A stretch of 64,000 nt of DNA, from the NCBI GenBank assembly GCA_964447765.1, contig CAYUTO010000003.1, positions 72,919 to 136,918 of the forward strand, read 5' to 3'. This DNA is from an uncultured Gammaproteobacteria bacterium (GTDB lineage: Bacteria; Patescibacteriota; Patescibacteriia; Magasanikbacterales; UBA922). Of this stretch, positions 25,823 through 62,147 are shown in pieces; position 1 is the stretch's first letter, and each line of letters starts with the position of its first letter. The translations under genes and the position numbers were made by a program. The notes under the pieces were generated by a model. It was not told where the DNA came from. It saw only the letters and a program-made list of their open reading frames with translations, and did not search any database.

Positions 25823-25823
25823 A

Positions 25824-40168: not shown

Positions 40169-40233
40169 CAGTAGGTGCTGTTTTTGAGAATACTAGATAC
40201 CAGTGTTCGCTCTTTTGACAACGGAGAATTGCG

Positions 40234-40578
40234 ATGGCAGAAAAATCCAAGATAAAACGGCTTCGCATCGAAGCACTCATATGGGCACTGACGATCACAT
40301 TCGTGGTCGGCGGACTCATCATGATCACTGGCCACGAGAGAAATGCGATAGCACACGAACTCGGTAGACGGCCTGCAATCGGATATCCCGTTTATCGGGG
40401 TGAATACACCATCATGATCATGAACATGCACCTCGGCGAGGTCTATTGGTTCACCGACTGCCCTCGACTGAAGGATTTTACTCGGTATGAGGAAGTTGCG
40501 ATCTACGGCGATCACCGGAATCGCTGCCACGACTGGCGCACTCTCACCCCCTCGGAATATGACATCTCCAAGAAGTAA
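40234..40578 (+). CDS. Hypothetical membrane protein in GC-rich islet 1
   Basis: 114 aa with one TM. GC-rich codons. TTGACA-N17 promoter upstream at ~40172. Confidence 0.45.
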   Translation: MAEKSKIKRLRIEALIWALTITFVVGGLIMITGHERNAIAHELGRRPAIGYPVYRGEYTIMIMNMHLGEVYWFTDCPRLKDFTRYEEVAIYGDHRNRCHDWRTLTPSEYDISKK

Positions 40579-40797
40579 CTCTTATTCCCTTGGCATGTCG
40601 CGGTCGACTACACCAACCCACAAGTGAACACTACCATTCACCGCCTCATGCCTTTATTGGTCCGAAAAACTTCGGGACAGTAAAGGAGATCGAGGCGGTG
40701 TTTTGTTTTCCCACAAAATTATTGACAACCTCACCAAAACCTTTATACTATGCACTTGTCGAGCTACGTGCCGACCGTCACCAGGAGAAACATACAC

Positions 40798-41106
40798 ATG
40801 TCGAATCCGGCAGAACAAGAAGAAGAGATCAAGCTCGCCCCTCCAATCGAGTACACCGGCCACACAGTCCACCTCCATCGCAAACCCAGCAAGAAGGGTC
40901 CGAAGGTGTACACTGGCAAGATTCGCATCGCTGAGTTCCCTCAGACGATCGTCCTCTACTACGATGGACGCTCGAGCTGCTTTGAATCAGACAAGTGGCA
41001 GAAGATTCTCAAGGACAACCAACTCACGCTCGAGGCGACCGTGGAGCAGCCGCTCCACAGACCCGTCCGAGTGGACTTCTTCATCAACGACGCCAACGCG
41101 TCGTAG
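40798..41106 (+). CDS. Hypothetical protein in GC-rich islet 1
   Basis: Start at MSNPAEQEEE with a GGAGA RBS 8 nt upstream. Followed by the hairpin gctcgcaccc...gggtgcgagc. Confidence 0.45.
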   Translation: MSNPAEQEEEIKLAPPIEYTGHTVHLHRKPSKKGPKVYTGKIRIAEFPQTIVLYYDGRSSCFESDKWQKILKDNQLTLEATVEQPLHRPVRVDFFINDANAS

Positions 41107-41176
41107 CTTGCGCGCTCGCACCCCTGGACTTCGGTCGACGGGTGCGAGCATATCAATTCCCTATCAAGGAATTTTT

Positions 41177-41398
41177 TTATTTACTAATTTCTACGATTTT
41201 CTTCTTTCCGGTTTTACCTTTAAGAATTACGATAGACGATTTTGCAATATCAAAATATTCACTTAAAATTTTAATTAGCTGTTCATTCGCTTCACCATCA
41301 ACTGGAGATGCAGTGAGACGAACTTGATATTCTGTTTCTGAAATTTTTTTTATACCAGTTTTTGATGAACGGGGTTTAACGGTAATAGTAAGACGCAT
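41177..41398 (-). CDS. DUF167 (YggU-like) small protein
   Basis: MRLTITVKPRSSKTGI...VRLTASPVDGEANEQLIKILSEYF matches the DUF167/YggU pattern. Confidence 0.7.
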   Translation of the reverse strand: MRLTITVKPRSSKTGIKKISETEYQVRLTASPVDGEANEQLIKILSEYFDIAKSSIVILKGKTGKKKIVEISK

Positions 41399-41522
41399 AT
41401 TGTATTTCCCCTCCTTTCGTAATAAGGTATATACTATATCACACCTCGAGACTTCGGCAGACCCTTCCCTATAGGAGAGGAAAATATAAAAAACAGACAG
41501 CTTTCGCCATCTGTTTTATGTA

Positions 41523-42827
41523 TTATTCGTGCTTATGTTCAGGTCTTCCGGTTAATATTTTCTCATGAAGAAAATTGATTACTTTTCGATTCACGAGATA
41601 TACCCGTACTGAATCTTGCACTTCTGCTTTGGTGAGATTTTCAAGGTATTCAGGGTGGTCTTTGTATTCTTTCTTCATTTTTTCAATTTCTACTTTGAGC
41701 TCCTGATCATCTACGGTAAGATTCTCATCCTTGGCAATCTGGCGAGAAACGAGTGCAGCTTTTGCACGCTTCGTAGCTTGCTCAGTAAAATCTTTTTGAA
41801 TATCCTCTTCGCTTTTCTTCAAGTCTGCCAAATATTGATCAATCGTGATTCCATTTTTTTCAAGATCACGTTTCAATTCATAAAACATTTTCTTTCGCTC
41901 AGCCTCTATCAATACTTCAGGAATTTCTTCGAACTTTGATTTGTCGATAAGTGCATCAAACATTTCGATCTCAGCTACTTCATCAGCTTTATGCAGTGCT
42001 TCATGCTCCATGTTGCTCTGCAATAATTCACGAAGTTTGATGACACTTTCTTGTCCTACTTTTTTTGCAAATTCATCATTCACTTCGGGGAAGACTCGAG
42101 TATACACTTCTTTTACTTTTGTTTTGAAATGCCCCGTGTTTCCTGCAAGCATTTTGTTGTAATAGTCTTTTGGAAATGGAACATCAAATTCTTTTTCCTC
42201 ACCCTTGGTAACTCCGAGAAGCGCATCATTGAATCCAGGAATGTGCTGCTTTTCTGATAAATACACCTGGTAATCTTTTGCCTGCCCACCTTCGATAGGT
42301 ACTCCATCGAGAAGGAGATCCATATCGATTACCACTTTGTCTTCTATGGTTGCAGGACCTTCTTTTACTACTTCTACAGCCTGCATTTTGGTGAGGTTTT
42401 CAATCACTGCATCAATATCAGTTTCAGTTACAGGCTTTGCTTTGTGTTCTACTTTTATTTTGTCGAGTTTTGGAAGAGTCACTACAGGAAGAAGTGCCAC
42501 TACTGCTTTGTATACAAAATCATTGCCTGGAGCGATTTTTTCAATATTAATTTTTGGCATTCCGATGGTATCAAGTTTTGCCTCCATGACCGCATTATAG
42601 AATGTTTCCTGGAGAATACTCTCGAGAGCTTCATTCATCACGTGCATTTCACCAATTTCACGTTTTACCATATCAAAAGGAGCATGTCCTTTGCGGAAGC
42701 CTTTGATCGTAGTTCTATTTGAGATTCGCTCAGCTGCTTTTCGCAAGTGTTTTTCGTATTCAGCCGGGGTTACCGTAATCGTCATCTCGATTTCTGAGTT
42801 TTTGAGTTTTTTATGAGTGTGTTCCAT
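41523..42827 (-). CDS. tig: Trigger factor
   Basis: 434 aa. N-terminal ribosome-binding domain with the GFRKGHAPFDMV motif, a central FKBP-like region and a C-terminal helical arm. Confidence 0.9.
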   Translation of the reverse strand: MEHTHKKLKNSEIEMTITVTPAEYEKHLRKAAERISNRTTIKGFRKGHAPFDMVKREIGEMHVMNEALESILQETFYNAVMEAKLDTIGMPKINIEKIAPGNDFVYKAVVALLPVVTLPKLDKIKVEHKAKPVTETDIDAVIENLTKMQAVEVVKEGPATIEDKVVIDMDLLLDGVPIEGGQAKDYQVYLSEKQHIPGFNDALLGVTKGEEKEFDVPFPKDYYNKMLAGNTGHFKTKVKEVYTRVFPEVNDEFAKKVGQESVIKLRELLQSNMEHEALHKADEVAEIEMFDALIDKSKFEEIPEVLIEAERKKMFYELKRDLEKNGITIDQYLADLKKSEEDIQKDFTEQATKRAKAALVSRQIAKDENLTVDDQELKVEIEKMKKEYKDHPEYLENLTKAEVQDSVRVYLVNRKVINFLHEKILTGRPEHKHE

Positions 42828-42855
42828 AGAAAAAAATTATATCTAGAAGTTTCGA

Positions 42856-42884
42856 GATTATAGCGAAAAGGACGGTAATTGTCA
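42856..42884 (-). promoter_or_regulatory. Sigma70-type promoter of tig (TTGACA-N17-TATAAT)
   Basis: Minus strand reads ccTTTGACAattaccgtccttttcgcTATAATc. Confidence 0.55.
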
Positions 42885-43073
42885 AAGGTAAACAAAAAAC
42901 CACCTGTCGGTGGATCTTACATCATCTTTTTACTACTCAATACTTATTAAGTGGTTAAAAGATGTGGCGAGAAGAGGTGTAAAACTCAGCTCGCCGGGTT
43001 TGCCCTTGCCGGGACCAGCATTTTCCAATGATTCAAGCGTTACATTGGATCGCTTTTATTTTAAAATGAACAG

Positions 43074-43304
43074 TTACCAGTGAGCGCCGAGTCTTTTCCT
43101 CAGCTCTCTGGTCTTTATCAGGTCGAGAGCTCCGACCCCTCCCCAAAAGGTGAGGAAGCACGAGACCTTCACGCCCGTAGTGAGGAATACCACGCCCCAC
43201 CCGTTCAGTTGAATCTCCTCTCCAACCGCCAAGATTGCAGAGGAGAACGACGCGAGTACGATCAAGGCTCTGGCCAAGAATGTCATCCACTGACGAAAAT
43301 CCAC
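43074..43304 (-). CDS. Small membrane protein in GC-rich islet 2
   Basis: 76 aa with two hydrophobic segments; overlapping alternative frames exist. Confidence 0.3.
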   Translation of the reverse strand: MDFRQWMTFLARALIVLASFSSAILAVGEEIQLNGWGVVFLTTGVKVSCFLTFWGGVGALDLIKTRELRKRLGAHW

Positions 43305-43358
43305 TCTACCTCCGTTGGACTTGCCTGAACCGAAGTTCAGGACTTTTTTCTGACCTTC

Positions 43359-43670
43359 TTATCCCAGAAGCCCTCTTTTCCGTAAATCAGACACCACCGG
43401 GGCCATCAGAGAGAGCAGCTCTGGGTCTTTCAAGACCTTGGTGGCGCAGTCTCCTGAACTCATCTCACCCGCATCCATTGCTTCGAAAAGCTTCATCAGC
43501 CTGGTGAGCTTCATCATCAATGCTGCAAGTTCAGGGTCATCCTGAAAAGCAACTTCGATTTCCTCCTTAGTCAAGGTCCCTTTCTTGGCTTTTACAAACC
43601 AGGAATGGAGCTTCGCCAGGTGAGGATCACTCTGCCTTTTATATATAAACCGTCGACGCGGCGTACCCAT
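43359..43670 (-). CDS. Hypothetical protein in GC-rich islet 2
   Basis: Start at MGTPRRR. Driven by the repeat-borne promoter at 43821-43849. Confidence 0.45.
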   Translation of the reverse strand: MGTPRRRFIYKRQSDPHLAKLHSWFVKAKKGTLTKEEIEVAFQDDPELAALMMKLTRLMKLFEAMDAGEMSSGDCATKVLKDPELLSLMAPVVSDLRKRGLLG

Positions 43671-43800
43671 GTGCCTTCCTTTTCTACCAAGCCGAAGCTT
43701 GTTGGTTTTAGTAGGGTGAGAAATTCTCAACCCTCATTTCTAATTATTTAGCTAAAATAAGCAAAAATGAGGACTAAGTAGGTATAATCGCGATATGTAA

Positions 43801-43887
43801 ACGACGATCTGGAACAATAGACTATACCATAATTTAGCAATTTTGTCAAGCCTTTTGGGGTATATTTTGGCTCAATGTAGCAAAATT
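43801..43887 (-). repeat. ~87-bp direct repeat copy A carrying a consensus promoter (TTGACA-N17-TATAGT)
   Basis: Near-identical to 44628-44711. Minus strand reads cTTGACAaaattgctaaattatggTATAGTctattgttccagatcgtc. Confidence 0.75.
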
Positions 43888-43999
43888 TGTACGTTCTTTT
43901 GCACTATAAAAATGAAAGACCCGCATCGTGTGATGCGGGGTTGCTCGGAAATCGAGCGAAGGATCAAGGGAACTTCCCAAGATCCCGAGAATTCAAGTG

Positions 44000-44461
44000 C
44001 TACTTGCGGCGGAGCATCCGGCTTCGGACGCTCCGTTGGGGCACGAGCCACTCCCAGTCCTGCACCCACCGGTCGCCGTTCCAGACGACATAGGCGACAC
44101 GGCCTTGATCGTCAGGATGACGCCAGTCAGTGAAGACGAAGTTGACCTTGCCACGGAGAACAGCAGGGATGTCATCCTGATACTTCAGGATATGCTCACC
44201 ATCCTCCTGTCCGAGATGAGCCGAGAGGTTCTTCGCCTGATCGACCATCGTCGACTTCTGTCTTCCCCTGCGGAAGCCGAGGATGTCGTAGGTGCGAGCA
44301 CCCACAGTCATCGTGGTCGGGATGACCCTATCCTTGATGAGATTCTCCTCGAAGAACTTGTTGGGGTTCTCGAGGAAGCTCTGGAAGTTCTCAGCCGTGA
44401 TCTTCCCCTCGCCAACGAGGACGAAGAAGTGCTGCATCTGCGGGAACGTCGGGTTGCTCAT
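44000..44461 (-). CDS. Hypothetical protein in GC-rich islet 2
   Basis: 153 aa, W-rich C-terminal region (VVWNGDRWVQDWEWL). Hairpin terminator downstream (gacccgcatcgtgtgatgcggg). Confidence 0.5.
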   Translation of the reverse strand: MSNPTFPQMQHFFVLVGEGKITAENFQSFLENPNKFFEENLIKDRVIPTTMTVGARTYDILGFRRGRQKSTMVDQAKNLSAHLGQEDGEHILKYQDDIPAVLRGKVNFVFTDWRHPDDQGRVAYVVWNGDRWVQDWEWLVPQRSVRSRMLRRK

Positions 44462-44627
44462 GCATTATCTCCTATGGCCCACTGGCAGTCAGTAAACGTC
44501 TCGGCACCGTGCCTACTGCGCTTCTGATACACCGTTGTGGGTCTATGAAGGAAGGGGAATTCCCAGCCTTCGTTTCTGGTTATTTGGCTTAAATAAACAA
44601 AAATGAAGGCTGGAATGTTATATAAAG

Positions 44628-44711
44628 GACGATCTGGAACAATAGACTATACCATAATTTAGCAATTTTGTCAAGCCTTTTGGGGTATATTTTGGCTCAA
44701 TGTAGCAAAAT
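44628..44711 (-). repeat. ~87-bp direct repeat copy B carrying the same consensus promoter
   Basis: ggacgatctggaacaatagactataccataatttagcaattttgtcaagccttttggggtatattttggctcaatgtagcaaaat. Confidence 0.75.
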
Positions 44712-44813
44712 ACCTATAAAAATGAAAAGCCCCGCATGTATAGCGGGGTGACCAATTTTGCGCTGACGACATGTCGAGCGCTCAGGGATCGTGAATCGAC
44801 CAAGGGAACACCC

Positions 44814-45362
44814 CTAGATCTTAAGTTCCAGCGTGACTTGGGCAGTTACGCTTACGCAACCCGCCTCATTTCTAGTCTGCACAGTACACGTCAGATTAGG
44901 AGCAACCGCAGGTGGCTCCTTCTCTTTTACCTCAGTAGCCGGGACCGAGACGAGCCTGTGTGCCTCTTCCAGCGAAGTTGCTGCCTGTTTCATGTAGGCG
45001 AACCGGGTCTTTACCGGCCCGACAATCTTATGCACATGATTCGCCGTATCGAGCAAAATGAGACACCACATTTTATCGATACCACGACTCTCATGCACTA
45101 TATTAGGATCGTCTCTGGTGACGGAGGCAGTGTACCAACGAATACCACCCGAGTCGTCGTATCTAATTCCGACGACTCGAAAGGCCCCCGGTATACGCTC
45201 ATGCTTTTCTCTACGAATCTCATATGAAACTTCCCCGATCATACCAGGGAAGTCTTTCTTCAACTTCGCCTCGAGTTCTTTAAGCCTCATCCTCATTTCT
45301 TCTTGTGTGGGTATTTTTTCTTCCACTTTGTCTTTTTTTGGTACTGATTTCGGGGATTTCAT
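44814..45362 (-). CDS. Hypothetical protein in GC-rich islet 2
   Basis: Start at MKSPKSV. Promoter-like ggTTGACAaattataataaatttgtTAGATT upstream at ~45400-45440. Confidence 0.45.
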   Translation of the reverse strand: MKSPKSVPKKDKVEEKIPTQEEMRMRLKELEAKLKKDFPGMIGEVSYEIRREKHERIPGAFRVVGIRYDDSGGIRWYTASVTRDDPNIVHESRGIDKMWCLILLDTANHVHKIVGPVKTRFAYMKQAATSLEEAHRLVSVPATEVKEKEPPAVAPNLTCTVQTRNEAGCVSVTAQVTLELKI

Positions 45363-45528
45363 CGGCAACTCCAGATTTTGTGGGTGTACTTGGAAAAGAG
45401 CGATAGATGAATCTAACAAATTTATTATAATTTGTCAACCCTTTTGCCTAAAATTAGCCTTTTTATATCTTTTTTCGTATATATTGTATATTCTTTATGT
45501 GCTACAATAATTCCAAACTAACTCCTTT

Positions 45529-48213
45529 ATGCCTACCAAAAACAAAACAGTCGTTATAATTGATGGAAACGCTATAATCCATCGCGCTTACCACGCTCTT
45601 CCTCCACTCACTGCTCCAGATGGAACGCTCGTAAATGCGGTGTATGGATTTGCGTCTATGCTCCTCAAAGTGATGGCAGATCTCAAGCCTGACTACCTCG
45701 TCACCACCTTTGATGTGGCCGGCGGTACTTTTCGCGATGAAATCTATACTGAATACAAAGCCACTCGGGTAAAAACTGACCAGGCACTCTATGACCAGAT
45801 TCCACTGGTTCACGAACTCGTCAAAGGTTTTAATGTACCGATTTATACCAAAACTGGATTTGAGGCAGATGACCTGATCGGAACGCTTGCAAAAAAGATT
45901 ACTGAAAAACATTCTGATATTACCTGTATTATCGTGACTGGTGACAAAGATTTGCTCCAGCTCGTAGACAATAATAAAATCGAGGTGTACCTCCTCCGAA
46001 AAGGAATGTCAGATTTTGAATTATTCAACGAAGCTCATGTGCAGGAAAAATTTGGATTCTCGCCGATACAGATGATTGATTACAAATCTCTTCGTGGTGA
46101 CACCTCTGATAATATTCCTGGGGTCAAAGGCATTGGAGAAAAAACTGCCACCGAATTGCTTACCAATTTTGGAACACTCGAAAAAATTTACGATGCTCTG
46201 AAAAATGAAGACAAAAAAATATCTGCAAGTGTGCAAAAAAAATTAACCGAAGGATATGAGTCAGCATTGATGAGCAAAAAACTTGCGACGATTGATACCG
46301 ATGTACCTGATATCGATTACTCGCTTCCCGAAATGCAAACAACTTCATACAAAAGAGAAGAGGTAATTGAATTATTCAAAAAATTTGGTTTTTACTCGCT
46401 CGTAAAACGTGTGTCTGGCGGTGCCGATGCTGTCGAGGAAAAAACTACGAATCCCAAAAAGAAAGAAAAGAAAATGAAAGTTGGCGAAGTAATTATTGTT
46501 GATACCAAAAACATTTCAGAGCTTAGTACACTTATACAAAAATACAAAGTCTGCGCATGTCGACCTTGTTTCCAGAATGAAAATGGAAATATCATCACCT
46601 CAACATGCACTGGAATTGTATGCGTTATTGCCGACACATCATGGATGATTCCGCTTTCAATGCTTGAAAAACTTCCCTTTAATTCAAAAGACATTACCAT
46701 TGTCGGGCATGATGTAAAACAATTTGTAAAACTGTACACGCATGTAGGAGTCGAATTTAAAGCGCGGTTATTTGATGTCATGATTGCATCGTATTTACTG
46801 AATTCGAGCACTCGTGCACACGACATGGAGTCAATCGCGATTCGAGAATTAGGAATTGAATTACCAAATACTGATCAATCATCGCTATTCGGCATTGACC
46901 CAAAAATTATTGCAACAGAGCTTGCAGCCACGCTCAAAGTATCAGAGAAATACGAAAAACAATTAGTGAGTGAATCAGAGAAGGGATTATTTGAAGACAT
47001 TGAAATGGCTTTGATCCCTGTGCTTGCACACATGGAGCTCGCGGGAGTTGCAATTGATATCCCACTCTTGGGACACCTATCAGTAAAAATCGCTAAGACT
47101 ATTAAGGAACTAGAAAAAAATATCTGGAAAGAAGCAGGGAAAGAATTCAATGTCTCGTCTTCCACCCAACTTCGGGATATTTTATTTGTTGATTTAGGTC
47201 TTCCGACTGACATGATCAAAAAAGGCAAAACGGGTTACTCGACTGCAGCAAGCGAGCTTGAAAAACTGAGAGAACTACATTCTATTATTCCTTTTATCGA
47301 AGAATACCGTGAAGTTGAAAAGCTCAGAAATACCTATATTGATGTATTACCGACTTTGATTAATCAGAAAACTGGTCGAATTCACACAACATTTAATCAG
47401 GCAATTGCAGCTACAGGACGACTCTCAAGTATTGACCCGAATTTGCAAAATATTCCAATTAGAACTGAATTAGGGAAAGACGTACGCAAAGCATTTATTG
47501 CGGACAAAGGAAATAAACTGATTTCAGCTGATTACTCACAAATTGAATTGCGTATTGTTGCCTCACTTGCGAATGATCTAAAAATGATTGAGATATTTAA
47601 AAAAGGTGAAGATATTCATACCGCGACCGCAGCTGCAATTCACAATATTCCACTTGATAAAGTTACCAAGGATATTCGACGATCTGCAAAAGAAGTTAAC
47701 TTTGGAGTTCTCTATGGCATGGGATCATTTGGTCTTTCGTCTCGCACAGGAATTTCTCACGCAGAAGCAAAAGAATTTATCCAAAAATATTTTGATACGT
47801 TTGCAGGGGTAAAGAAATATATGGATGACACACTGGAACGTGCAAAAGAAACCGGATATGTAGAAACACTATTTGGTCGCAAACGTTATGTACCAGAATT
47901 ACAATCACCTAATAGACAAATCCAGGCAGCAGGTGAACGCATGGCAATCAACATGCCGATCCAAGGAACCGCAGCTGATATTATGAAGATGGCGATGATT
48001 GCAGTGTACCACGCACTTAAAAAAGAAAAGTTACTTGATTCACACGCTCGAATGACTCTACAGATACACGATGAATTGGTTCTTGAGGTTGAAGAAAAAT
48101 ATGCCGAAGCGGTTGCTCTGATAGTAAAAACGGAAATGCAAAATGTTGCGAAACTCAAAGTACCGATTGATGTAGGAGTAGAGATTGGCGATCGGTGGGG
48201 GGAGATGAAGTAG
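45529..48213 (+). CDS. polA: DNA polymerase I
   Basis: N-terminal 5'-3' exonuclease (VIIDGNAIIHRAYHA). Central exonuclease-like domain. C-terminal family-A polymerase motifs (DYSQIELR, RRSAKEVNFGVLYGMG, QIHDELV). Confidence 0.9.
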   Translation: MPTKNKTVVIIDGNAIIHRAYHALPPLTAPDGTLVNAVYGFASMLLKVMADLKPDYLVTTFDVAGGTFRDEIYTEYKATRVKTDQALYDQIPLVHELVKGFNVPIYTKTGFEADDLIGTLAKKITEKHSDITCIIVTGDKDLLQLVDNNKIEVYLLRKGMSDFELFNEAHVQEKFGFSPIQMIDYKSLRGDTSDNIPGVKGIGEKTATELLTNFGTLEKIYDALKNEDKKISASVQKKLTEGYESALMSKKLATIDTDVPDIDYSLPEMQTTSYKREEVIELFKKFGFYSLVKRVSGGADAVEEKTTNPKKKEKKMKVGEVIIVDTKNISELSTLIQKYKVCACRPCFQNENGNIITSTCTGIVCVIADTSWMIPLSMLEKLPFNSKDITIVGHDVKQFVKLYTHVGVEFKARLFDVMIASYLLNSSTRAHDMESIAIRELGIELPNTDQSSLFGIDPKIIATELAATLKVSEKYEKQLVSESEKGLFEDIEMALIPVLAHMELAGVAIDIPLLGHLSVKIAKTIKELEKNIWKEAGKEFNVSSSTQLRDILFVDLGLPTDMIKKGKTGYSTAASELEKLRELHSIIPFIEEYREVEKLRNTYIDVLPTLINQKTGRIHTTFNQAIAATGRLSSIDPNLQNIPIRTELGKDVRKAFIADKGNKLISADYSQIELRIVASLANDLKMIEIFKKGEDIHTATAAAIHNIPLDKVTKDIRRSAKEVNFGVLYGMGSFGLSSRTGISHAEAKEFIQKYFDTFAGVKKYMDDTLERAKETGYVETLFGRKRYVPELQSPNRQIQAAGERMAINMPIQGTAADIMKMAMIAVYHALKKEKLLDSHARMTLQIHDELVLEVEEKYAEAVALIVKTEMQNVAKLKVPIDVGVEIGDRWGEMK

Positions 48214-54626: not shown

Positions 54627-54867
54627 ATATAAAGTATTTTAATCTTCTAATCTTCAATCTTTATTCTTCAGTTATTTCTTCCCTATTTTCCCAAAGAAAA
54701 ACGCGATCAGTGTCGCAGCAATTGATCCGAGGATTAGTATGAGAATTGATAAGAATCCATCCATAGTATTATCCATAATAACACAAACTTTTCTCTCTGT
54801 CATTGTGTCATTCCGAGCGAGTGCACTCGAGTCGAGGAATCCCTTGTTTTGCAATAATATACGGTAA

Positions 54868-54958
54868 AACAAAAAGACACCACAGGTGTGATGTGCTTTT
54901 GGTTTGGGCGGAACTGACAGACACAGTTCCGCAGGGTTGTCCTAAGTTTTACTTCCAC
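54868..54958. repeat. ~90-bp direct repeat copy 1 (hairpin gcggaactg...cagttccgc)
   Basis: aacaaaaagacaccacaggtgtgatgtgcttttggtttgggcggaactgacagacacagttccgcagggttgtcctaagttttacttccacc. Confidence 0.75.
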
Positions 54959-55007
54959 CATGTCTGAGGCAGAAGGAGTATAACCTACTCAAGTATGTGA
55001 AAATGCT

Positions 55008-55886
55008 CTATTTGACTACAGGACCCACTTCTTTGATAAAATCTGGTCCGACGTTACCTTCTATCCCCGCTTTCATTGTGCGCCGGTACCACTCTCTAAA
55101 GTTATTTCGGTAAATTGCGCCCCAGACTTCTATTGTCTGTTGCATCACTCCCGAATCATTCATCCCCGTTTCAGCACTCACCTGTTTTGGGAGTCTTCCT
55201 CTCTTGTATAACACAGCATACAATCTCGCTTGCGCAGCGTAGGCTGTTTCTTCGAATCCTTCTAGGTCTGAGTTGTAGAAGCCCTTCATCTGAGTGCGAT
55301 CTTGTATATTGTTCTTCTGGATGTACTTCAGACAGTCAGAAGCATGCTTCATCTCGTGATAGAAGCCGAGCGCCACGAACTCCGTACTCCCCTGAGAAGG
55401 AGCGGCGACTGCGTACCTATCATTAACGCAGTCATATGCCATTCGCCCAGTCCCACCTATTGGTTCCGAGTAGAATACCCATTGAATCCGACGCGTGCCC
55501 TGCACGTACTCTTTGAGGAGGGCGAAGATCTCTTTGTCATCTTGTGTAGACAAGAATGGATCACCTTCAAACTCGAGAATGACGTCTGCTGAAGCACGCA
55601 GTTGCTGTGGACTTACTGCTGGCAGGTTTTTTACGCTCACGAACTCGTGATCGAGGTCCACGAGTTCAGGAACTTGAGCCCGAACTGCGGTATTGACAGT
55701 CTGGTGTGCCGCCGCCGGTCTGTTCACGACTGATCTCGTATTCCTCTCTTTTGCGAGGAAGAAGATAGCGATACCCCCGAGCACCAGGGCCGAGATTGCC
55801 AGTAGCATACCCGACCAGTTTTTATTCACTGGTTTCTCAGCCATTTTAACTGCTGAGCGAACTTGGTGCTTAGTTTTTTTCGACAT
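55008..55886 (-). CDS. Membrane-anchored putative zinc metallopeptidase (HEMKH motif) in GC-rich islet 4
   Basis: Start at MSKKTKH (GTGAGGT RBS upstream). One TM, then an extracytoplasmic domain with FYHEMKHASD (HExxH). Confidence 0.5.
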   Translation of the reverse strand: MSKKTKHQVRSAVKMAEKPVNKNWSGMLLAISALVLGGIAIFFLAKERNTRSVVNRPAAAHQTVNTAVRAQVPELVDLDHEFVSVKNLPAVSPQQLRASADVILEFEGDPFLSTQDDKEIFALLKEYVQGTRRIQWVFYSEPIGGTGRMAYDCVNDRYAVAAPSQGSTEFVALGFYHEMKHASDCLKYIQKNNIQDRTQMKGFYNSDLEGFEETAYAAQARLYAVLYKRGRLPKQVSAETGMNDSGVMQQTIEVWGAIYRNNFREWYRRTMKAGIEGNVGPDFIKEVGPVVK

Positions 55887-55926
55887 GATTACCTCACTGT
55901 TGCTGGTCCTATAATTAGGACTAAGC

Positions 55927-55955
55927 AAAATACTACAATTTATACGTTTTGTCAA
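55927..55955 (-). promoter_or_regulatory. Promoter (TTGACA-N17-TATTTT) of the metallopeptidase-like gene
   Basis: Minus strand reads caTTGACAaaacgtataaattgtagTATTTTgc. Confidence 0.45.
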
Positions 55956-55971
55956 TGCTACAGGGTATATA

Positions 55972-56059
55972 AAACAAAAAGACACCACGGATGTGATGTG
56001 CTTTTGGTTTGGGCGGAGCTCTCAGGTAGAGCTCCGCAGTTGATGTGAGTTTTACTTCC
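55972..56059. repeat. ~90-bp direct repeat copy 2 (hairpin gcggagctc...gagctccgc, compensatory changes relative to copy 1)
   Basis: aacaaaaagacaccacggatgtgatgtgcttttggtttgggcggagctctcaggtagagctccgcagttgatgtgagttttacttccac. Confidence 0.75.
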
Positions 56060-56376
56060 ACAACCTGAACATAGAAGGGGTCTCAGTAGACCTAGCGCGC
56101 ATATTATTGCGCTTCCAGACCACTACCCTAGGAGTGAGCTTATCACATTCCCTGTACCCACCTAAGGAACAGATACATATGCACCGGGTTGGAAATAGTG
56201 CAGTCCTCACTCTCTTGCATCTTCTGCTGCCCAGGTGCACTGCTCTGCGAAGCACTAATTTGCTCATGGCTCGTAGCCAGTATACCTGCAATGAGCAGAG
56301 GCAGAATAAATATGGACGCTATTATCGCAATGAATTTTTTATCCATTTCCATAGCACCTCAGGTCGGTGGTAAGCT

Positions 56377-56838
56377 TTACCCCCAGAAGCCGAGTCGTTG
56401 CCACCAGTGGGGTGGATACGTCTGGGTCGGTTTGTGTTCACCCGTAAGATCGATCGAGTTCTTAACCTCTACAGCATTCACCCCGTTAATGAGGAAGATG
56501 AAGTTGCACTCTCCCTTACCGAGGTAAGTGGAAAAGGCGATAACTCCACCTTTACTGTATAAATACCCGAACTGATCGACCCCTTTGTTTCCGAATGGTA
56601 ATTCGAGCTCAAATGCGATCAGAGCACTGAACTTCTTTCCACCAGGAACAGAGAGTACGATCGTCTGCATCCCTGGCACCAACTCTTCAGTAGCACTTCC
56701 TAAATAGTGCCACTGGATCTTATTTTTATTGTCGTCAGTGTAGTTCTTCAGAAACTTGAACTTCTTCACGAGTTCCTTCGCGAGGAACACAGTCGTCACG
56801 AGGGCGATGAGAAGGAACAATAGAATGATTGTAAACAT
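56377..56838 (-). CDS. N-terminally anchored hypothetical protein in GC-rich islet 4
   Basis: 153 aa with one TM (IILLFLLIALVTTVFL). Confidence 0.45.
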   Translation of the reverse strand: MFTIILLFLLIALVTTVFLAKELVKKFKFLKNYTDDNKNKIQWHYLGSATEELVPGMQTIVLSVPGGKKFSALIAFELELPFGNKGVDQFGYLYSKGGVIAFSTYLGKGECNFIFLINGVNAVEVKNSIDLTGEHKPTQTYPPHWWQRLGFWG

Positions 56839-56942
56839 GCGACTCTCCAGTGTCCTTGGTTGTAAGGACTAAAAATTATATCACAGAACACCCTCTTTGT
56901 CAAGACTAAATGATGTATGTTTATCTAGATTTAAAACTATCT

Positions 56943-57013: not shown

Positions 57014-57016
57014 ATT

Positions 57017-57812: not shown

Positions 57813-57884
57813 GCTCCTATAGTTCAATGGATAGAACAAGACACTCCTAACGTCTAGATCCGCGTTCGATTCGCGGTGGGGGCA
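57813..57884 (+). tRNA. tRNA-Arg (anticodon CCT)
   Basis: Acceptor gctccta/tgggggc. Same D-arm as the Arg-TCT tRNA. Anticodon loop ctCCTaa. T-arm ccgcg-ttcgatt-cgcgg. Confidence 0.75.
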
Positions 57885-58335
57885 CAAATTAGAAAATTCT
57901 TTGAGTACACCATCCTCTCGACACACACTTGCAGAAACCAAGGTCGGGGATAGCCCTAATAACTAGCAATACACGCGGCATACACAAACCGTGTTTTTGT
58001 TACACACCTAATCAATTTTTGAGGTAGATTTAATAATTCATCTCTATACATAATTAAAGATAGAACCTAATCCATTTTTTTTATTTGTTTAATATAAAAT
58101 ACCGACAGCACCCCTAGGAAGAAAGTTGAGCACATACACTACAAAGCCTCACATATTTAATTAAATTGTGTTTAATTTGCTTAATGTAAATAATATTAAG
58201 TGTCGTACAATATAATTATTTACATATTAAACATGCGTATGCCCCAAAATTTTATATTACTAACCCCTTATACCTTGTTTTTTTGAAAAAACCTGTTATA
58301 CTTTTTCCAGTTTCTGTTCCAACACCTAGCCAAGG

Positions 58336-58644
58336 ATGTGTGTCATGCTTCAGTTCTTTGTCTCCTTAGTACTCATTTACCTGGCAACCGAGTTCGCTCG
58401 ATACATTATCGAGCAGACGAAAGCTCTCGGAGAGCTGGACAACACTCAGGATGCCATCAGCGTCACTCCTCCCGCTAACCGCGACATGATAAACTGGTTC
58501 TACTCCTCGTCGGACGAAGAACCACCTACCAAACAGAGGTTACATCCACCACGAACGAAGAAGGGCTCAATACGCCCTCATCGACGTGCACGTATGCGAC
58601 GACCCCCTTGCATACGCAGCGGACCTAACACCGCACGCCTCTGA
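58336..58644 (+). CDS. Hypothetical protein in GC-rich islet 5 (TM N-terminus, basic P/R-rich tail)
   Basis: 102 aa. Followed by a long hairpin ccgtcctaagtctgttcg...cgaacagacttaggacg. Confidence 0.35.
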   Translation: MCVMLQFFVSLVLIYLATEFARYIIEQTKALGELDNTQDAISVTPPANRDMINWFYSSSDEEPPTKQRLHPPRTKKGSIRPHRRARMRRPPCIRSGPNTARL

Positions 58645-58796
58645 TCCCCCGTCCTAAGTCTGTTCGGCACACGAACAGACTTAGGACGCCCATCTTCAAA
58701 AGATTTCACCATCTTTTTTTTATTATACCAGGCAGGTACGTTTGATTTTTTATCATTCTTCTGTTACACTCCGCAATACAAAACTAACTTGTTACT

Positions 58797-59870
58797 ATGT
58801 TATCGATTGGAATTGTCGGACTCCCCAATGTAGGAAAATCAACACTTTTTAACGCGCTTACCAAAAGTAAGCTCGCTGAAGCTGCTAATTATCCTTTTTG
58901 TACTATTGAACCTAATGTTGGTGTAGTTGAAGTTCCAGACGAGCGACTTGCGCCACTTGCCACTACTTCAAAATCGGGAAAAATTATCCCAACCGCAATT
59001 CAATTTGTTGATATTGCAGGAATTGTAAAAGGCGCATCAGAAGGTGAAGGATTGGGAAACAAATTTCTTACTCATATCCGTGAAGCTGACGCGATTGTAC
59101 AGGTCGTACGTGCGTTTGAAGATGGAAATATCATTCACGTATCAGGAAAAGTAGATCCAAAAGACGATAGTGATGTAATCAATCTTGAACTCGCACTTGC
59201 CGACCTTGCAACCGTCTCAAAACGATTGGATAAAACAAAACGCGATGCAAAAGGTGCAGCGGCAAAAGGAAAAGAAGTGGAGATTGCAGTACTCGAAAAA
59301 CTAAACGCACAATTGGGAAGTGGATTACCCACACGAGATCTTGAATTTAATGATGATGAAAAACTAATTGTACGAGATCTACACTTACTTACCATGAAAC
59401 CCATGATGTACGTGGTGAATGTAGAAGAAACTGCGGTAGGGAAAGTAGATTTCAAAAGTATTTTTGGTGCAACTCCCTATATAGAGATCAGTGCAAAAAT
59501 TGAATCAGAAATTGCTGAATTAAATTCTGAAGATGCAAAAATGTTTATGGATGATCTAGGAATGAAAGAAACTGGGCTTGATCGATTAATTGTTGCTGGA
59601 TACAAACTACTTAATCTCATTACATACTTTACTTCTGGAGAACAAGAAACACGTGCATGGACAGTTACAAGTGGGACTCTCGGCCCTGATGCTGCAGGAG
59701 TCATTCATACTGATTTTGTCAAAGGATATATCAAAGCTGATGTTGCAAGTGTTGCCGACTTTGTAGAACTTGGTGGCTGGCCAGGAGTAAAAGAAAAAGG
59801 AAAGATGCAGTTAGTCGGAAAAGATTATGAAGTGAAAGATGGTGATGTATGTTACTTTCATATCGCTTAA
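58797..59870 (+). CDS. ychF: Redox-regulated ATPase YchF (Obg-family)
   Basis: GIVGLPNVGKSTLFNALT P-loop, DIAGIVKGAS, TGS-type C-terminus. Confidence 0.9.
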   Translation: MLSIGIVGLPNVGKSTLFNALTKSKLAEAANYPFCTIEPNVGVVEVPDERLAPLATTSKSGKIIPTAIQFVDIAGIVKGASEGEGLGNKFLTHIREADAIVQVVRAFEDGNIIHVSGKVDPKDDSDVINLELALADLATVSKRLDKTKRDAKGAAAKGKEVEIAVLEKLNAQLGSGLPTRDLEFNDDEKLIVRDLHLLTMKPMMYVVNVEETAVGKVDFKSIFGATPYIEISAKIESEIAELNSEDAKMFMDDLGMKETGLDRLIVAGYKLLNLITYFTSGEQETRAWTVTSGTLGPDAAGVIHTDFVKGYIKADVASVADFVELGGWPGVKEKGKMQLVGKDYEVKDGDVCYFHIA

Positions 59871-59910
59871 CCTAGTCACGAGTCAGTAAAGTCATAAAGT
59901 CGAAAGTAAA
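59871..59910. repeat. Intergenic repeat, family R1 (partial)
   Basis: cctagtcacgagtcagtaaagtcataaagtcgaaagtaaa. Confidence 0.55.
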
Positions 59911-59971
59911 ATGCACATGCAAAAAAAGTAAACGAAAAAGTTAAAAGAAAATACAAATACAATTCATAAAT

Positions 59972-60002
59972 AAAAATCCGCCGTATGGCGGGTTTTGTTT
60001 TT
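59972..60002 (+). terminator. Rho-independent terminator after ychF
   Basis: aaaaatccgccgtatggcgggttttgttttt. Confidence 0.7.
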
Positions 60003-60127
60003 ACCTTTCGTCCTTATCTTCAGGACTCATCAGTTCATGTTTCACATGAAGAGGTCGGCCGTTTTTTTGAGGTACGGCGTAACCTCTCTCCGTTTTACGA
60101 AATGGAGATAAAACTTATACGTAAGGA

Positions 60128-60460
60128 TCAATCAGACTTCTGGTTCATCGCCTCCCACGTCTCTTCGAGAGACTTGCGCACTGCCTCTTGCTCGTGGAAT
60201 TCTCTGTTCACCTTCAGGACAAGGTCCTTCAGATTCAGGAGTATGAAGTAAAGCACGATATCATCTTCTTCGGACAACCCCTTGTCCGAATAGTAGATCC
60301 CTCGAGCTTCGGAGTATTTAACACTCCCTTTCTCCTTTTCTCCGGTCACCTGGACTTCCACTTCCACCACCCATGCGAGACCAGTGATACGGTCTCTGAT
60401 GGCGTCGGAGATCGCGGTAATCTGAAGTACCCACTGCTCTCGCTTGATTTTACTGTTCAT
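60128..60460 (-). CDS. Hypothetical protein in GC-rich islet 6
   Basis: 110 aa. Promoter-like gcCTTGACAacaagcgcttattttggTTAACT on the minus strand upstream (~60565-60595). Confidence 0.4.
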   Translation of the reverse strand: MNSKIKREQWVLQITAISDAIRDRITGLAWVVEVEVQVTGEKEKGSVKYSEARGIYYSDKGLSEEDDIVLYFILLNLKDLVLKVNREFHEQEAVRKSLEETWEAMNQKSD

Positions 60461-60592
60461 TCAGTTCCCCTTGGTGGCCATTACAGACCGATTGAAATGC
60501 ACACAAACCTAGAAACCAACTTTGATTTCCACCATTGTGCGCACTTATACTTAAAGGAGAATGATTTAGTTAACCAAAATAAGCGCTTGTTG

Positions 60593-60853
60593 TCAAGGCT
60601 TATCTATTCCACCTTTGGACCAGGGATTACATCGAATTATCCGCCAGGCCGCTCTGGGTAGACCCTGGATCACTCCATATTTTTTGATTACTTGATACCC
60701 ATACTCACTACAACTCGGAGTAAATTTACAATATCCATAGGGAAATTTTGCCTTCATAGGCCCATGATCAGGTGAAAGTGTTCGCTGATACACCCGAATA
60801 ACAAATAGGAGTATATTTTTGGGAATGGTAATAATAAAACGAAGTAATCGCAT
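60593..60853 (-). CDS. yidD: Membrane protein insertion efficiency factor YidD
   Basis: YQRTLSPDHGP...CKFTPSCSEYGYQVIKKYG; canonical YidD. Confidence 0.8.
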   Translation of the reverse strand: MRLLRFIITIPKNILLFVIRVYQRTLSPDHGPMKAKFPYGYCKFTPSCSEYGYQVIKKYGVIQGLPRAAWRIIRCNPWSKGGIDKP

Positions 60854-60883
60854 ATTTTAGCTTAGTTGAGAGAAAAAAGACGA

Positions 60884-61261
60884 TTAGATGAGTAATCGAG
60901 CTTTTTTGAGAATAGATTCAATATCCTGAGTAATATCAGCATATTCTGCGCTAAAAAGCTTTGGAGTAGATAAAAATGCAATAAAGTAGCCTTCTTTAAT
61001 TCTTTTATCCTTAAGGAGCAGACGAACCACTTCTCGCATCTGCCGCTTCACTCGATTACGCCCCACAGCTTTCTTTTCATGCTTCACACTCGCTACAAAC
61101 CCGATTTTTAGATCATTTTCTACATATCCACGCTTAGGATACTTAGCCGGATCAATTTTCCAGATCTTTGCCCCCACAATATTACCCGACACAAATCTAC
61201 CCTCTTTAAAAAGGATTTCAAAGTCTTTCATTTTTTTAAGCCTACACTCCTGAGATAACAT
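60884..61261 (-). CDS. rnpA: RNase P protein component
   Basis: KKAVGRNRVKRQMREVVRLLL basic RNR-like motif. Start is uncertain: TTG at 61294, or ATG at 61261 or 61231. Confidence 0.75.
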   Translation of the reverse strand: MLSQECRLKKMKDFEILFKEGRFVSGNIVGAKIWKIDPAKYPKRGYVENDLKIGFVASVKHEKKAVGRNRVKRQMREVVRLLLKDKRIKEGYFIAFLSTPKLFSAEYADITQDIESILKKARLLI

Positions 61262-61299
61262 AGCTAAATTGTGTACGCCTTCATAAAGATACAAATTTT

Positions 61300-61340
61300 C
61301 TTTCGACTTTATGGACTTTCCGACTTTTGACTAAAGGTAA
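61300..61340. repeat. Intergenic repeat, family R1 (partial)
   Basis: tttcgactttatggactttccgacttttgac. Confidence 0.55.
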
Positions 61341-61387
61341 GTATAACACAAAGCCCCGTTTGAGCGAGGCTTTGAATTTGTTCAAGT

Positions 61388-61564
61388 TTATCTGGTCTTT
61401 TGAGTGCGTTTTCCTTTGCGTTCGCTACTCACCGTGAGTTTTTTTCGACCCTTAGCGCGTCGGCGCTTGAGTATATCACGACCATCTTTTGTCCTCATTT
61501 TTTTCAAAAAACCATGGGTTTTTGCTCGTTTTCGTTTTTTTGGTTGATACTTTCGCTTTGGCAT
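61388..61564 (-). CDS. rpmH: 50S ribosomal protein L34 (with C-terminal basic extension)
   Basis: [45 protein letters not shown]. Confidence 0.85.
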
Positions 61565-61759
61565 ACAAATGCTCCTTAAGTAATTACTAATAAATACACT
61601 ATACACTATTTTACCTGTTTTGTCAAGAAAAATTCCGTAATTTTAGAGAATTTGGAAGCCTCGCACCAGAACTCTATGTCCGAAATGGACATTTAGAGAC
61701 TGGTGCGAGACCAACGACTTGCCCGTCTTTCGAATACGGCTTTTAAGTCCGAGCGATGC

Positions 61760-62041
61760 TCAGACCTTTGGCCGTCCGAAAAAGACTCTCCCAACACTTT
61801 GCCCGTCCGGCAAGGGGACCTCGTAGGTCTCCCTGGGTCCGACCACGTACTGACTGCTCATGTTCGGACCATTCAGCTTGAAGGCCAGATGGTTGTCCTC
61901 GTAGTTCGTCATCTCGACGATGTTGAGGCTTTTCCGACCACGCTCTCGCTTTCGCTTGATTTTGACCTCTGCCACTCCCTTGCGGCGCACTCGACTATCA
62001 GTCGAGAGATTGCCATTCAGCTGTCTCCAGTCAATGTCCAT
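61760..62041 (-). CDS. Hypothetical protein in GC-rich islet 7 (between rpmH and dnaA)
   Basis: 93 aa. GAGGAG RBS 8 nt upstream. TTGACA-N17-TTTACT promoter-like on the minus strand at ~62063-62091. Confidence 0.35.
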   Translation of the reverse strand: MDIDWRQLNGNLSTDSRVRRKGVAEVKIKRKRERGRKSLNIVEMTNYEDNHLAFKLNGPNMSSQYVVGPRETYEVPLPDGQSVGRVFFGRPKV

Positions 62042-62147
62042 GCGTGCTTGCTCCTCTGAAGTTAGACTACCCGAGCTGCAATAGTAAACAAGAAAAACGC
62101 TTATTTGTCAATAATTTTTATTTCAGGCATACTAGATTTCCTCACAT

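Follow-up and report, generated by a model that had tools for sequence, protein, structure and literature searches.

GC-rich orphan gene cassettes in seven conserved slots of a Candidatus Magasanikbacteria genome, probably held at high GC within the clade

We analyzed a 64,000-nt stretch of an uncultured bacterium (contig CAYUTO010000003.1 of GenBank assembly GCA_964447765.1, positions 72,919 to 136,918 of the forward strand), here called the window. Seven short GC-rich islets interrupt its lower-GC background between 40 and 62.1 kb, and each carries one or more small orphan genes. The same seven positions are filled in related genomes of a genus-level clade of Candidatus Magasanikbacteria. 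We favor the interpretation, at a probability of roughly 60%, that the islets are seven conserved slots supplied by a clade-specific, recombination-driven pool of gene cassettes, and that the GC-richness of the cassettes is actively maintained.

The background GC content of the window is 0.39-0.40, and sliding 200-nt windows give a mean of 0.405 with a standard deviation of 0.053. A first-pass annotation had picked out the seven islets by eye, and the computed GC content agrees with its coordinates within about 100 nt. They are located at 40176-41225 (islet 1, GC 0.505), 42951-45300 (islet 2, 0.496 with peaks of 0.58), 48276-48950 (islet 3, 0.516), 55051-56600 (islet 4, 0.482, its cassettes extending to 56903), 58301-58775 (islet 5, 0.495), 60126-60550 (islet 6, 0.487) and 61626-62100 (islet 7, 0.514). 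Their sizes range from 0.45 to 2.6 kb and their GC content from 0.48 to 0.58, against 0.39 in the background. Sliding-window GC shows no comparable islet in the first 40 kb of the window (1-40 kb).

The islets contain 13 open reading frames (ORFs), one more than first counted, and the description of them as small genes without a recognizable family holds. The GC-rich third codon positions noted by eye are also borne out. The GC content at third codon positions (GC3) is 0.51-0.79 in the 13 islet ORFs and 0.16-0.39 in the 51 other ORFs of the window, with medians of 0.61 and 0.33 and zero overlap (Mann-Whitney p=1.7e-8). In every synonymous family, A/T endings give way to C/G endings in the islet ORFs. 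The gains of C and G are equal, and the third position is C at a frequency of 0.30 and G at 0.31. Amino acid usage is nearly unchanged, except for tryptophan (2.1-fold) and arginine (1.7-fold). Other genes without a Pfam match, such as the pilus-associated genes and a 41-aa membrane peptide, are normal in GC3, so the effect is not a by-product of poor annotation.

Assembly chimerism, a technical concern raised at first, is excluded by identical independent assemblies and by synteny. The region 58660-64000 is 100% identical in independent assemblies of two other runs, and GC-rich islets are found at matching syntenic positions in about 10 other metagenome-assembled genomes (MAGs) from different studies.

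Frame-specific purifying selection, as judged from sequence comparison, indicates that the islet ORFs with orthologs are real genes. The ratio of nonsynonymous to synonymous substitution rates (dN/dS) is 0.15-0.27 for A1, 0.17-0.33 for C1, 0.11-0.17 for D3, 0.14-0.19 for F1 and 0.41-0.46 for G1. In the alternative frames that overlap these ORFs it is 0.7-2.2, and the antisense frame of A1 gives 0.85-0.94 (A1 against L001-L003). Housekeeping neighbors fall between 0.00 and 0.33, mostly below 0.15. Long antisense ORFs lie on the plus strand opposite B3 (43997-44527), F1 (60188-60661) and G1 (61703-62059), as expected in GC-rich DNA. The exact B3 sequence is not in the protein collection, and automatic callers picked islet ORFs of atypical GC3 in relatives (for example L179 14978-15340, GC3 0.35). 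For these reasons, calls on the wrong strand or in the wrong frame are likely in the islets.

The slots are a conserved, clade-wide architectural feature, not seven independent accidents in one genome. By PolA, the relatives are MAGs labelled Magasanikbacteria at 94, 91, 87 and 79% identity. GC-rich orphan ORFs occupy the same slots in L001-L004, L161, L162, L165, L173, L175 and L179-L184. All seven slots are filled in the sister genomes, with small ORFs that have no Pfam match. The slot ORFs of the relatives have a GC3 of about 0.46-0.91, compared to 0.19-0.48 in their neighbors; three automatically called slot ORFs are lower, at 0.35-0.44, and possibly represent wrong frames.

Some slots hold divergent orthologs. 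C1 orthologs are found in the ndh-polA slot of all relatives examined. A1 has orthologs in the methyltransferase-yggU slot (L001, L002, L003, L173, L175) and D3 in the trmB-rmuC slot (L001-L003, L181). Homologs of F1 share 40-56% amino acid identity and lie in the yidD-ychF slot (L179, L180, L181, L184), and those of G1 share 67% and lie in the rpmH-dnaA slot (L180, L184). E1 has homologs in L001/L179 (80%), L184 (83%) and L003 (44%), and A2 only in L001 (48-55%) and L173 (53%). D1 is found only in the window, L004 and L181.

Other slots carry unrelated cargo in different genomes, namely tig-polA, trmB-rmuC and ychF-trmB. At least six unrelated gene sets are found in the tig-polA slot. The window has B4, B3 and B2-B1, L161 has B3 alone, L173 a 179-aa ORF, L001/L003 two ORFs of 105 and 141 aa, L002/L175 a 147-aa ORF, and L004/L181 a 77-aa ORF. 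L173 is among the closest relatives (flank synonymous divergence, dS, about 0.4-0.5), and all four B genes are missing from it, with a different ORF instead. B4 is absent from every relative examined and its 90% cluster contains the source genome only; B2, B1 and D2 likewise have no homolog in the relatives. Islet content varies among close relatives, and compared with the ancestral arrangement the islets are insertions. Between rpmH and dnaA, the spacer measures 648 bp in the window and is a compact, AT-rich 200-400 bp in about 60 relatives that are further removed, which makes G1 a derived insertion. Low-GC relatives at a greater distance (L082 and L086, DnaA 75-77% identical) have GC-rich islets of their own without Pfam matches, located elsewhere. 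The closest DnaA-anchored metagenome loci, at 75-77% DnaA identity, contain no homolog of any islet protein.

Sequence comparison also indicates that the genealogies of the cassettes are decoupled from those of the housekeeping genes beside them, some alleles being younger and others much older. The lateral movement proposed for the cassettes is seen in B3, C1 and E1, whose dS is far below that of the flanks. C1 has a dS of 0.23 to L004, where the flanking polA and ndh are above 2 (saturated), and of 0.05 to L173, where the flanks are at 0.38-0.44. Its identity is inverse to that of PolA, at 88% to L004 and 62% to L001. B3 has a dS of 0.15 to L161 (flanks 0.97-1.18), and E1 of 0.14-0.23 (flanks 0.4-0.6). 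F1 and D3 are much older than their surroundings, with a dS of 1.6 to saturated (flanks 0.2-0.6) and 1.4 to saturated (flanks 0.5-0.8), respectively. The alignments place the exchanged tract at the cassette itself. The identity of about 90% at nucleotide level between C1 and its L004 counterpart is limited to 48400-48800, and blocks of insertions and deletions are found at both cassette borders. In L161, the tig-polA slot holds exactly one cassette, which aligns at 91% to 44712-43893 of the window and is followed by the tig promoter. The aligned unit spans the promoter module, the leader, B3 and the terminator.

Repeated modules mark the cassette boundaries. A 93-nt promoter module lies on both sides of B3, in copies that are 98% identical. 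Similarly, a 70-90-nt double-hairpin terminator module flanks D1 at either end; L001 lacks D1 and contains a single copy of the module. The promoter and a leader of about 90 nt are conserved before four unrelated ORFs, and the similarity stops just past a 22-bp hairpin, the apex of which is AU-rich and palindromic (TTATTTTAG/CTAAATAA). Compensatory changes are found at six of its pairs. The leader is located at 44556-44645 and 43724-43820 (minus strand) in the window, 5062-5160 in L161, 9250-9341 in L001, 9226-9315 in L003 and 4527-4618 in L173. The hairpin matches no Rfam family, and the islets have no Rfam match beyond tRNA. The conserved tig-polA leader could be a regulatory RNA or an operator. 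A 3' terminator module is also common to different cargos, and is shared with L165 and L175. Since the same modules precede and follow different cargos, the slots appear to act as conserved expression platforms with swappable cargo.

The high GC content of the cassettes is at substitutional equilibrium and is not a fading import signature. Orthologs retain a GC3 of 0.58-0.82 after synonymous saturation. Third-position substitutions in C1, A1 and D3 were polarized by Fitch parsimony on their trees, a divergence-based count. The ratio of G/C-to-A/T (S->W) to A/T-to-G/C (W->S) changes is 56:42 for C1, 22:23 for A1 and 37:33 for D3, or 115:98 pooled. Neutral amelioration from a GC3 of about 0.62 to the host value of 0.30 predicts about 3.8:1, which is rejected (p=3e-16); a ratio of 1:1 is compatible with the counts (p=0.27). 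The non-coding DNA of the cassettes has a GC content of 0.487, compared to 0.349 in ordinary intergenic DNA and 0.33-0.37 in the conserved transcribed leaders. The enrichment thus tracks the swapped segment and not codons or the transcript as such, which weakens pure codon selection as its cause. Recombining bacterial genes and the non-coding DNA adjacent to them are GC-richer independent of codon optimality (Lassalle et al., 2015; PMC4450053). By calculation, where the mutation bias gives a GC3 of 0.30, a fixation bias of B~1.5 would keep it at 0.65.

In the mechanism that we propose, related genomes would swap cargo by homologous recombination within boundary modules of about 90-150 nt. A double crossover would replace the cargo. 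A single crossover with a circularized fragment would add a cassette in tandem and leave module repeats at both sides; it is proposed because direct repeats of the modules flank the inserts, that is, from the repeat geometry only. Natural transformation would probably supply the DNA, with uptake through the type IV pilus machinery whose genes lie just upstream. Genes for PilB, PilC and PilM-like proteins lie at 33.5-39 kb, in a pilus assembly cluster immediately upstream of the islets. A fixation bias of the calculated size would then keep the GC3 of the cassettes about 30 points above that of the host. GC-biased gene conversion (gBGC) at recombination hotspots would be the most economical source of this bias, with selection on transcript or DNA as the alternative. 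The products may serve in variable roles at the cell surface or at the host or phage interface. It is doubtful, but worth stating, that the promoter, leader and terminator modules of dedicated expression slots also act as recombination handles for a cassette pool that spans the clade, and that exchange through them gives the strongest local footprint of GC-biased conversion yet in a bacterium (GC3 +0.3, B~1.5), within a reduced genome that drifts toward AT.

Several points weigh against this interpretation. The GC3 gap of about 0.3 is large, and gBGC is a candidate force only. Because replacement by unrelated cargo makes no heteroduplex within the cargo, it would be confined to exchange between homologous alleles. 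Divergence in an unsampled GC-rich reservoir followed by repeated re-import would also give equilibrium counts. Fitch parsimony is biased at these divergences, and a spurious excess of W->S changes is seen in the housekeeping controls; in GC-rich genes the bias should inflate S->W changes, and it therefore works against the equilibrium conclusion. The module repeats could have arisen by unequal crossing-over or local gene conversion. Natural transformation is read from the gene content, and the pilus cluster is compatible with uptake but is no proof of it. B1, B2, B4 and D2, which have no homolog in any relative or collection examined, are taken as coding from ORF length, ribosome binding site and codon-position pattern only. 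Finally, D1 looks partly ameliorated and is patchy, which suggests that some cassettes behave like genuine imports. Its GC3 is 0.53 in the window and 0.67-0.76 in homologs elsewhere. In three of four contexts examined, the D1 homolog is a GC-rich gene in lower-GC surroundings, so high GC appears to travel with the family.

The first-pass annotation had suggested that the islets are foreign cassettes from a higher-GC donor. Insertion, variable content and lateral movement have stood; the donor, the fading signature and the independent accidents have not. Recent independent imports from a phage, plasmid, host or sister lineage, with an un-ameliorated signature that is continually refreshed, are the strongest competitor to the clade-specific cassette pool, and we consider them unlikely. 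Such imports would fit the different cargo of close relatives, the recent lateral exchange of C1, B3 and E1, the derived insertion of G1, and the patchy D1, whose family members are found on contigs with a GC content of 0.52-0.58. The wider clade also reaches a GC content of 0.556 (L097, DnaA 76% identical), and horizontal gene transfer is common among Patescibacteria (PMC12455944). However, the searches turned up no donor. Among 5.8 billion proteins there are 10 homologs of C1, and the six that were looked up (P0003, P0004, P0005, P0008, P0010 and P0012) are all in the ndh-polA slot of Magasanikbacteria; syntenic slots of low-GC members of this group are the only known setting of its homologs. 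The 90% clusters of the six islet proteins present in the collection contain the source genome only. Four viral-contig scans, a phage blastn search and PHROGs (ten longest ORFs) were all empty, and no plasmid or higher-GC host source turned up, the plasmid collection not having been searched. The D1 contexts argue the same way, as do the GC3 of at least 0.58 in resident orthologs past saturation, the balanced substitutions, and the promoter and leader modules, which are native and conserved. In addition, genes that are accessory or newly acquired normally have a lower GC content than the host (PMC4450053), so a systematic stream of GC-rich imports would itself need explaining.

Less probable still is that the cassette genes are residents and that selection on expression preserves their GC-rich codons, through the speed or accuracy of translation with C-ending codons, mRNA stability or structure, or avoidance of AU-targeting RNases, with recombination incidental. 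The equilibrium composition, the purifying selection on the genes and a strong shift to NNC codons in two-fold families (TTC, AAC, TAC, ATC, GAC) agree with such selection. The GC-rich part also runs from past the AT-rich leader to the terminator, and so approximates the body of the mature transcript. However, G endings rise as much as C endings in every family, unlike tRNA-matched optimal codons, and the ribosomal protein genes of the window are ordinary in GC3 (rpsT 0.33, rpmH 0.33). The non-coding DNA of the cassettes is equally enriched, the leader hairpin is AT-rich despite belonging to the same mRNA, and GC3 is spread widely between cassettes (0.51-0.79).

Site-specific cassettes of an integron-like or integrase-driven kind, or remnants of small integrative elements at tRNA and origin hotspots, are very improbable. 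The small tandem cassettes and repeated boundary elements recall such systems. E1 lies 450 nt downstream of tRNA-Arg(CCT) (57813-57885) and G1 in the rpmH-dnaA spacer, and to this extent the reported adjacency to insertion hotspots stands; the repeats also named as hotspots are not specific to the islets. A tyrosine recombinase gene at 15327-16496, the sole one in the 64 kb, adjoins a tRNA gene. However, it is located 24 kb from the first islet and has host composition, and its product is Xer-like (XerD/XerC-like models 230/223 bits; integron-integrase model 126, below its cutoff of 265). No attC core pairs spaced 40-130 nt were found on either strand of 40000-62300, compared to 4.5 +/- 2.9 in block shuffles. 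The cassettes are equipped with promoters of their own, the window shows no att-like repeat of a tRNA 3' end, and there are no mobility genes between pilM and dnaN in the window or the annotated relatives. As an artefact, a chimera of assembly or binning or non-coding GC-rich DNA with chance ORFs from few stop codons, the islets can be dismissed despite the long ORFs on both strands (such as that opposite B3) and the four ORFs without homologs, in view of the identical assemblies, the syntenic islets, the frame-specific selection, and the D1 family with its invariant catalytic motif and confident fold models.

The recombinase is 389 aa long, longer than typical XerC/D and under the NCBIfam equivalog cutoffs. 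Its gene lies directly upstream of tRNA-Arg(TCT) (16591-16663), with AAAGTCG repeats between them. Repeats of the AAAGTCGAAAG type are a real family, with 15 matches in the window against 2.4 expected, and the enrichment is limited to the window and its closest relatives. They are found at 2491-2522, 16517-16534, 28904-28939, 48212-48271, 59896-59906 and 61300-61310. We rejected them as a marker of islet hotspots, as they occur at non-islet sites (2.5, 16.5 and 28.9 kb). At 2491-2522, four overlapping 7-nt tandem copies lie within a class I tRNA-synthetase ORF; most of the remaining sites are intergenic, and some form inverted pairs where genes converge. The repeats might serve as terminators or as DNA-uptake-like sequences. 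Two candidate recombination cores, TTCCCTTG past the stop codons of A1, B3 and B4 and TTAGTCCT past the -10 elements of B2, D1 and D3, were dropped, as neither is significantly enriched in the window. CTATTGTTCC is significantly enriched (4 against 0.16 in the window) but marks only the C1 leader in relatives, and was rejected as a universal cassette signal.

Searches with the islet products returned no family, either in Pfam (all 13 ORFs) or in PHROGs, PADLOC and NCBIfam (the ten longest, with B1, D2 and E1 outside the scan). An anti-defense theme, which had been offered as a possibility, is unsupported, PADLOC being empty for these ten. A hydrophobic N-terminal anchor is present in six of the 13 products. 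The C1 model (AlphaFold2, mean confidence score pLDDT 81) has a predicted flavodoxin/Rossmann-like fold, which is generic and has no assignable function.

D1 is the only functional handle among the islet products. It has a transmembrane (TM) segment at residues 27-45 and an HEMKH motif at 177-181, and H177, E178 and H181 are invariant across 26 aligned family members. E212, 31 residues past H181, is also invariant. It is located on helix 208-228 of the model and is a candidate for the third zinc ligand, a Glu in gluzincins. The family has 52 members in an exhaustive search, compared to 2 matches in a word-indexed search, and its fold models are confident and predict a zincin fold for D1. No match was found in Pfam, NCBIfam or the PDB sequence set, so D1 has no membership in a curated peptidase family. 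On the basis of the models, D1 is a membrane-anchored HExxH zincin-fold protein and probably acts as an extracytoplasmic metallopeptidase.

Each slot contains one to three autonomous transcription units. The predicted layout of a unit is a sigma-70-type promoter, a 5' untranslated region (UTR), a ribosome binding site, a small ORF, and a GC-rich hairpin with a T-run. The initial claim that most genes have their own promoter and hairpin terminator holds for most units. Promoters with 9-12 of 12 consensus matches and a hairpin with T-run were read for eight units (A1, A2, B4, B3, B2-B1, C1, D3-D2 and D1); E1, F1 and G1 have promoters that match the consensus weakly. The housekeeping genes tig and rpmH have consensus promoters that are equally good, so the promoters are native in style and no distinguishing mark of the islets.

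In islet 1, both units are on the plus strand. The A1 unit (40165-40709) has the promoter TTGACA-N18-AATACT at 40165-40194, a coding sequence at 40234-40578 (114 aa, GC3 0.63, N-terminal TM segment) and a long hairpin with T-run at 40641-40709. The A2 unit (40722-41180) has the promoter TTGACA-N16-TATACT at 40722-40749 and a coding sequence at 40798-41106 (102 aa, GC3 0.76). Its terminator, a GC hairpin with T-run, is common to the convergent yggU.

Islet 2 contains three units on the minus strand. The B4 unit (44730-45438) has the promoter TTGACA-N17-TAGATT at 45438-45410, a coding sequence at 45362-44814 (182 aa, GC3 0.51) and the terminator CCCCGC..GCGGGG at 44748-44730. The B3 unit (43920-44711) begins with the promoter module at 44711-44619 (TTGACA-N17-TATAGT). 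The conserved leader hairpin at about 44618-44556 and a GC-rich distal 5' UTR follow, then the coding sequence at 44461-44000 (153 aa, GC3 0.79) and the terminator at 43939-43920. The B2-B1 unit (42900-43886) begins with the second module copy at 43886-43794 and the leader hairpin at about 43820-43724. B2 is encoded at 43670-43359 (103 aa) and B1, a predicted membrane protein with a GTG start, at 43304-43074 (76 aa). Past the terminator at 42913-42900 lies the tig promoter. A DUF559 (Vsr-like endonuclease) gene with a GC3 of 0.20 lies between tig and yggU in L165 (15247-15546) and L173 (6964-7335), so not every variable insertion is GC-rich.

The single unit of islet 3, C1 (48297-48968, minus strand), has the promoter TTAACT-N17-TATAGT at 48968-48940 and a GC-rich 5' UTR of 137 nt that includes CTATTGTTCCA. 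The coding sequence at 48802-48359 (147 aa, GC3 0.61) is followed by a hairpin terminator at about 48350-48297.

Both units of islet 4 are on the minus strand. D3-D2 (55970-56903) has a perfect promoter, TTGACA-N17-TATAAT, at 56903-56875. D3 is encoded at 56838-56377 (153 aa, N-terminal TM segment) and D2 at 56352-56143 (69 aa, TM segment), and the double-hairpin terminator module lies at 56060-55970. D1 (54865-55955) has the promoter TTGACA-N17-TATTTT at 55955-55927, a coding sequence at 55886-55008 (292 aa) and the second terminator module copy at 54957-54865. A gene for a single-TM peptide of 41-44 aa is found directly upstream of rmuC in all relatives (window 54672-54803 on the minus strand, L162 3701-3835, L165 3541-3666, L180 8662-8790), and is low in GC, unlike the adjoining cassettes.

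E1 in islet 5 (58275-58687, plus strand) has a weak promoter-like sequence, TTGTTT-N16-TATACT, read by eye. Its coding sequence at 58336-58644 (102 aa, N-terminal TM segment, GC3 0.56) is followed by a perfect 16-bp hairpin at 58651-58687. A very AT-rich (GC about 0.29) non-coding stretch of 450 nt, 57890-58330, extends from tRNA-Arg(CCT) to E1 and is about 80% conserved in L001. F1 in islet 6 (59973-60596, minus strand) has a TTGACA at 60596-60591 that overlaps the yidD stop codon, a weak -10 element and a 5' UTR of about 100 nt. The coding sequence is at 60460-60128 (110 aa, GC3 0.64) and a bidirectional terminator at 59996-59973.

G1 in islet 7 (61660-62111, minus strand) is an insertion, with the upstream region of dnaA on one side and the rpmH promoter on the other. 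It has a TTGACA at 62111-62106 with a weak -10 element, a coding sequence at 62041-61760 (93 aa, GC3 0.69) and a nested hairpin at 61709-61660. A cluster of DnaA-box-like motifs (TGTGGATAA/TGTGGATGA) was found by eye at 62140-62190, upstream of dnaA. It adjoins the G1 promoter, so G1 probably sits beside the oriC/dnaA control region. In L097 (Ga0076004_112) and L099, whose DnaA is 70-76% identical to that of the window and whose locus GC content is 0.52-0.56, the rpmH-dnaA spacer contains insertions of 2.7-3.9 kb. The GC content of the wider clade spans 0.27-0.56.

Two further regions of the window are of normal composition. A run of genes at 18915-26519 encodes at least seven small paralogs, each with a T4SS_pilin (TrbC/VirB2-like) domain at its C terminus; a solute-binding protein is interspersed among them, and their GC3 is normal. 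A GGDEF-domain protein encoded at 52069-53133 has normal GC and evolves fast, with 30-58% amino acid identity where PolA has 79-94% and a dN/dS of 0.21-0.33.

The islets represent the variable gene set of an uncultured lineage of the candidate phyla radiation (CPR). Their products are small and often membrane-anchored and include a new zincin-like family. Host-attachment or phage-interface functions of episymbionts would be expected among such genes. Cassettes and flanks share one cell and one mutation spectrum yet differ in GC3 (0.61 against 0.33), which offers a natural test of gBGC against selection. If exchange through the modules does leave the strong conversion footprint considered above, accessory genes here are GC-richer than the core because they recombine, which would invert the usual rule, perhaps in other CPR bacteria too. 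In practice, islet genes are easily mis-binned, called on the wrong strand or discarded as contamination during MAG curation.

The islets share features with several known systems. Phage morons (Juhala/Hendrix; reviewed by Cumby et al., 2012) are small additions between conserved genes with their own promoter and terminator; their GC content differs from that of their neighbors and their presence varies between otherwise syntenic relatives (PMC3594210). The islets are likewise small, variably present, predicted to be independent transcription units, and deviant in GC. However, morons are found in phages and prophages, whereas the islets lie among the housekeeping genes tig, polA, rmuC, ychF, rpmH and dnaA. 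They have no phage homology, their slots are clade-wide, and their deviant GC is at equilibrium and does not reflect recent transfer.

Replacement flexible islands, or pangenome hotspots, reportedly described by Rodriguez-Valera and colleagues and by Oliveira, Touchon and Rocha, are said to hold non-homologous genes at the same core-flanked position. They are exchanged via homologous recombination in conserved flanks, and their products are often related to the cell surface. The islet slots are similar in their core-flanked positions, non-homologous content and genealogies uncoupled from the flanks. Replacement islands usually measure tens of kb, contain clusters of the glycosyltransferase or O-antigen type, and are AT-richer than the core or equal to it. 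The islet units are single genes of 0.4-1 kb with cargo much GC-richer than the core, and their handles are promoter/leader and terminator modules of about 100 nt instead of flanking genes.

Integron cassettes are also small orphan genes that are added in tandem, with a repeated structured element after each and a shared upstream expression platform. Unlike them, the islets have no IntI, attI or attC, and have their own promoters, whereas integron cassettes are mostly promoterless and expressed from Pc. The repeats of the islets are promoter and terminator modules of an ordinary kind, and imply recombination that is homologous and not site-specific. The islets also differ from a classical genomic island or integrative element: there is no mobility gene from pilM to dnaN, only E1 is near a tRNA gene, and a repeat of the tRNA 3' end is missing. 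Composition-based island finders read any deviation as recent import.

Like the genes affected by gBGC (Lassalle et al., 2015; PMC4450053), the islets are GC-rich at third positions and in non-coding DNA, in a way that optimal codons do not explain. The effect here is sharply local and large (GC3 0.61 against 0.33) and involves accessory orphans instead of core genes, and the causal link is only proposed. No description of GC-rich orphan islets in Patescibacteria was found in the literature searched. Bacterial ORFans, reportedly characterized by Daubin and Ochman in 2004, are said to be short, lineage-restricted and fast-evolving, to occupy variable loci, and typically to be AT-richer than the host. 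The islet genes are equally short and lineage-restricted, occupy variable loci, and have a dN/dS several-fold above the core. However, they are about 30 points richer than the host in GC3, not AT-richer. The flexible genes of this clade are systematically GC-richer and compositionally stable, the opposite of the usual rule for accessory genes.

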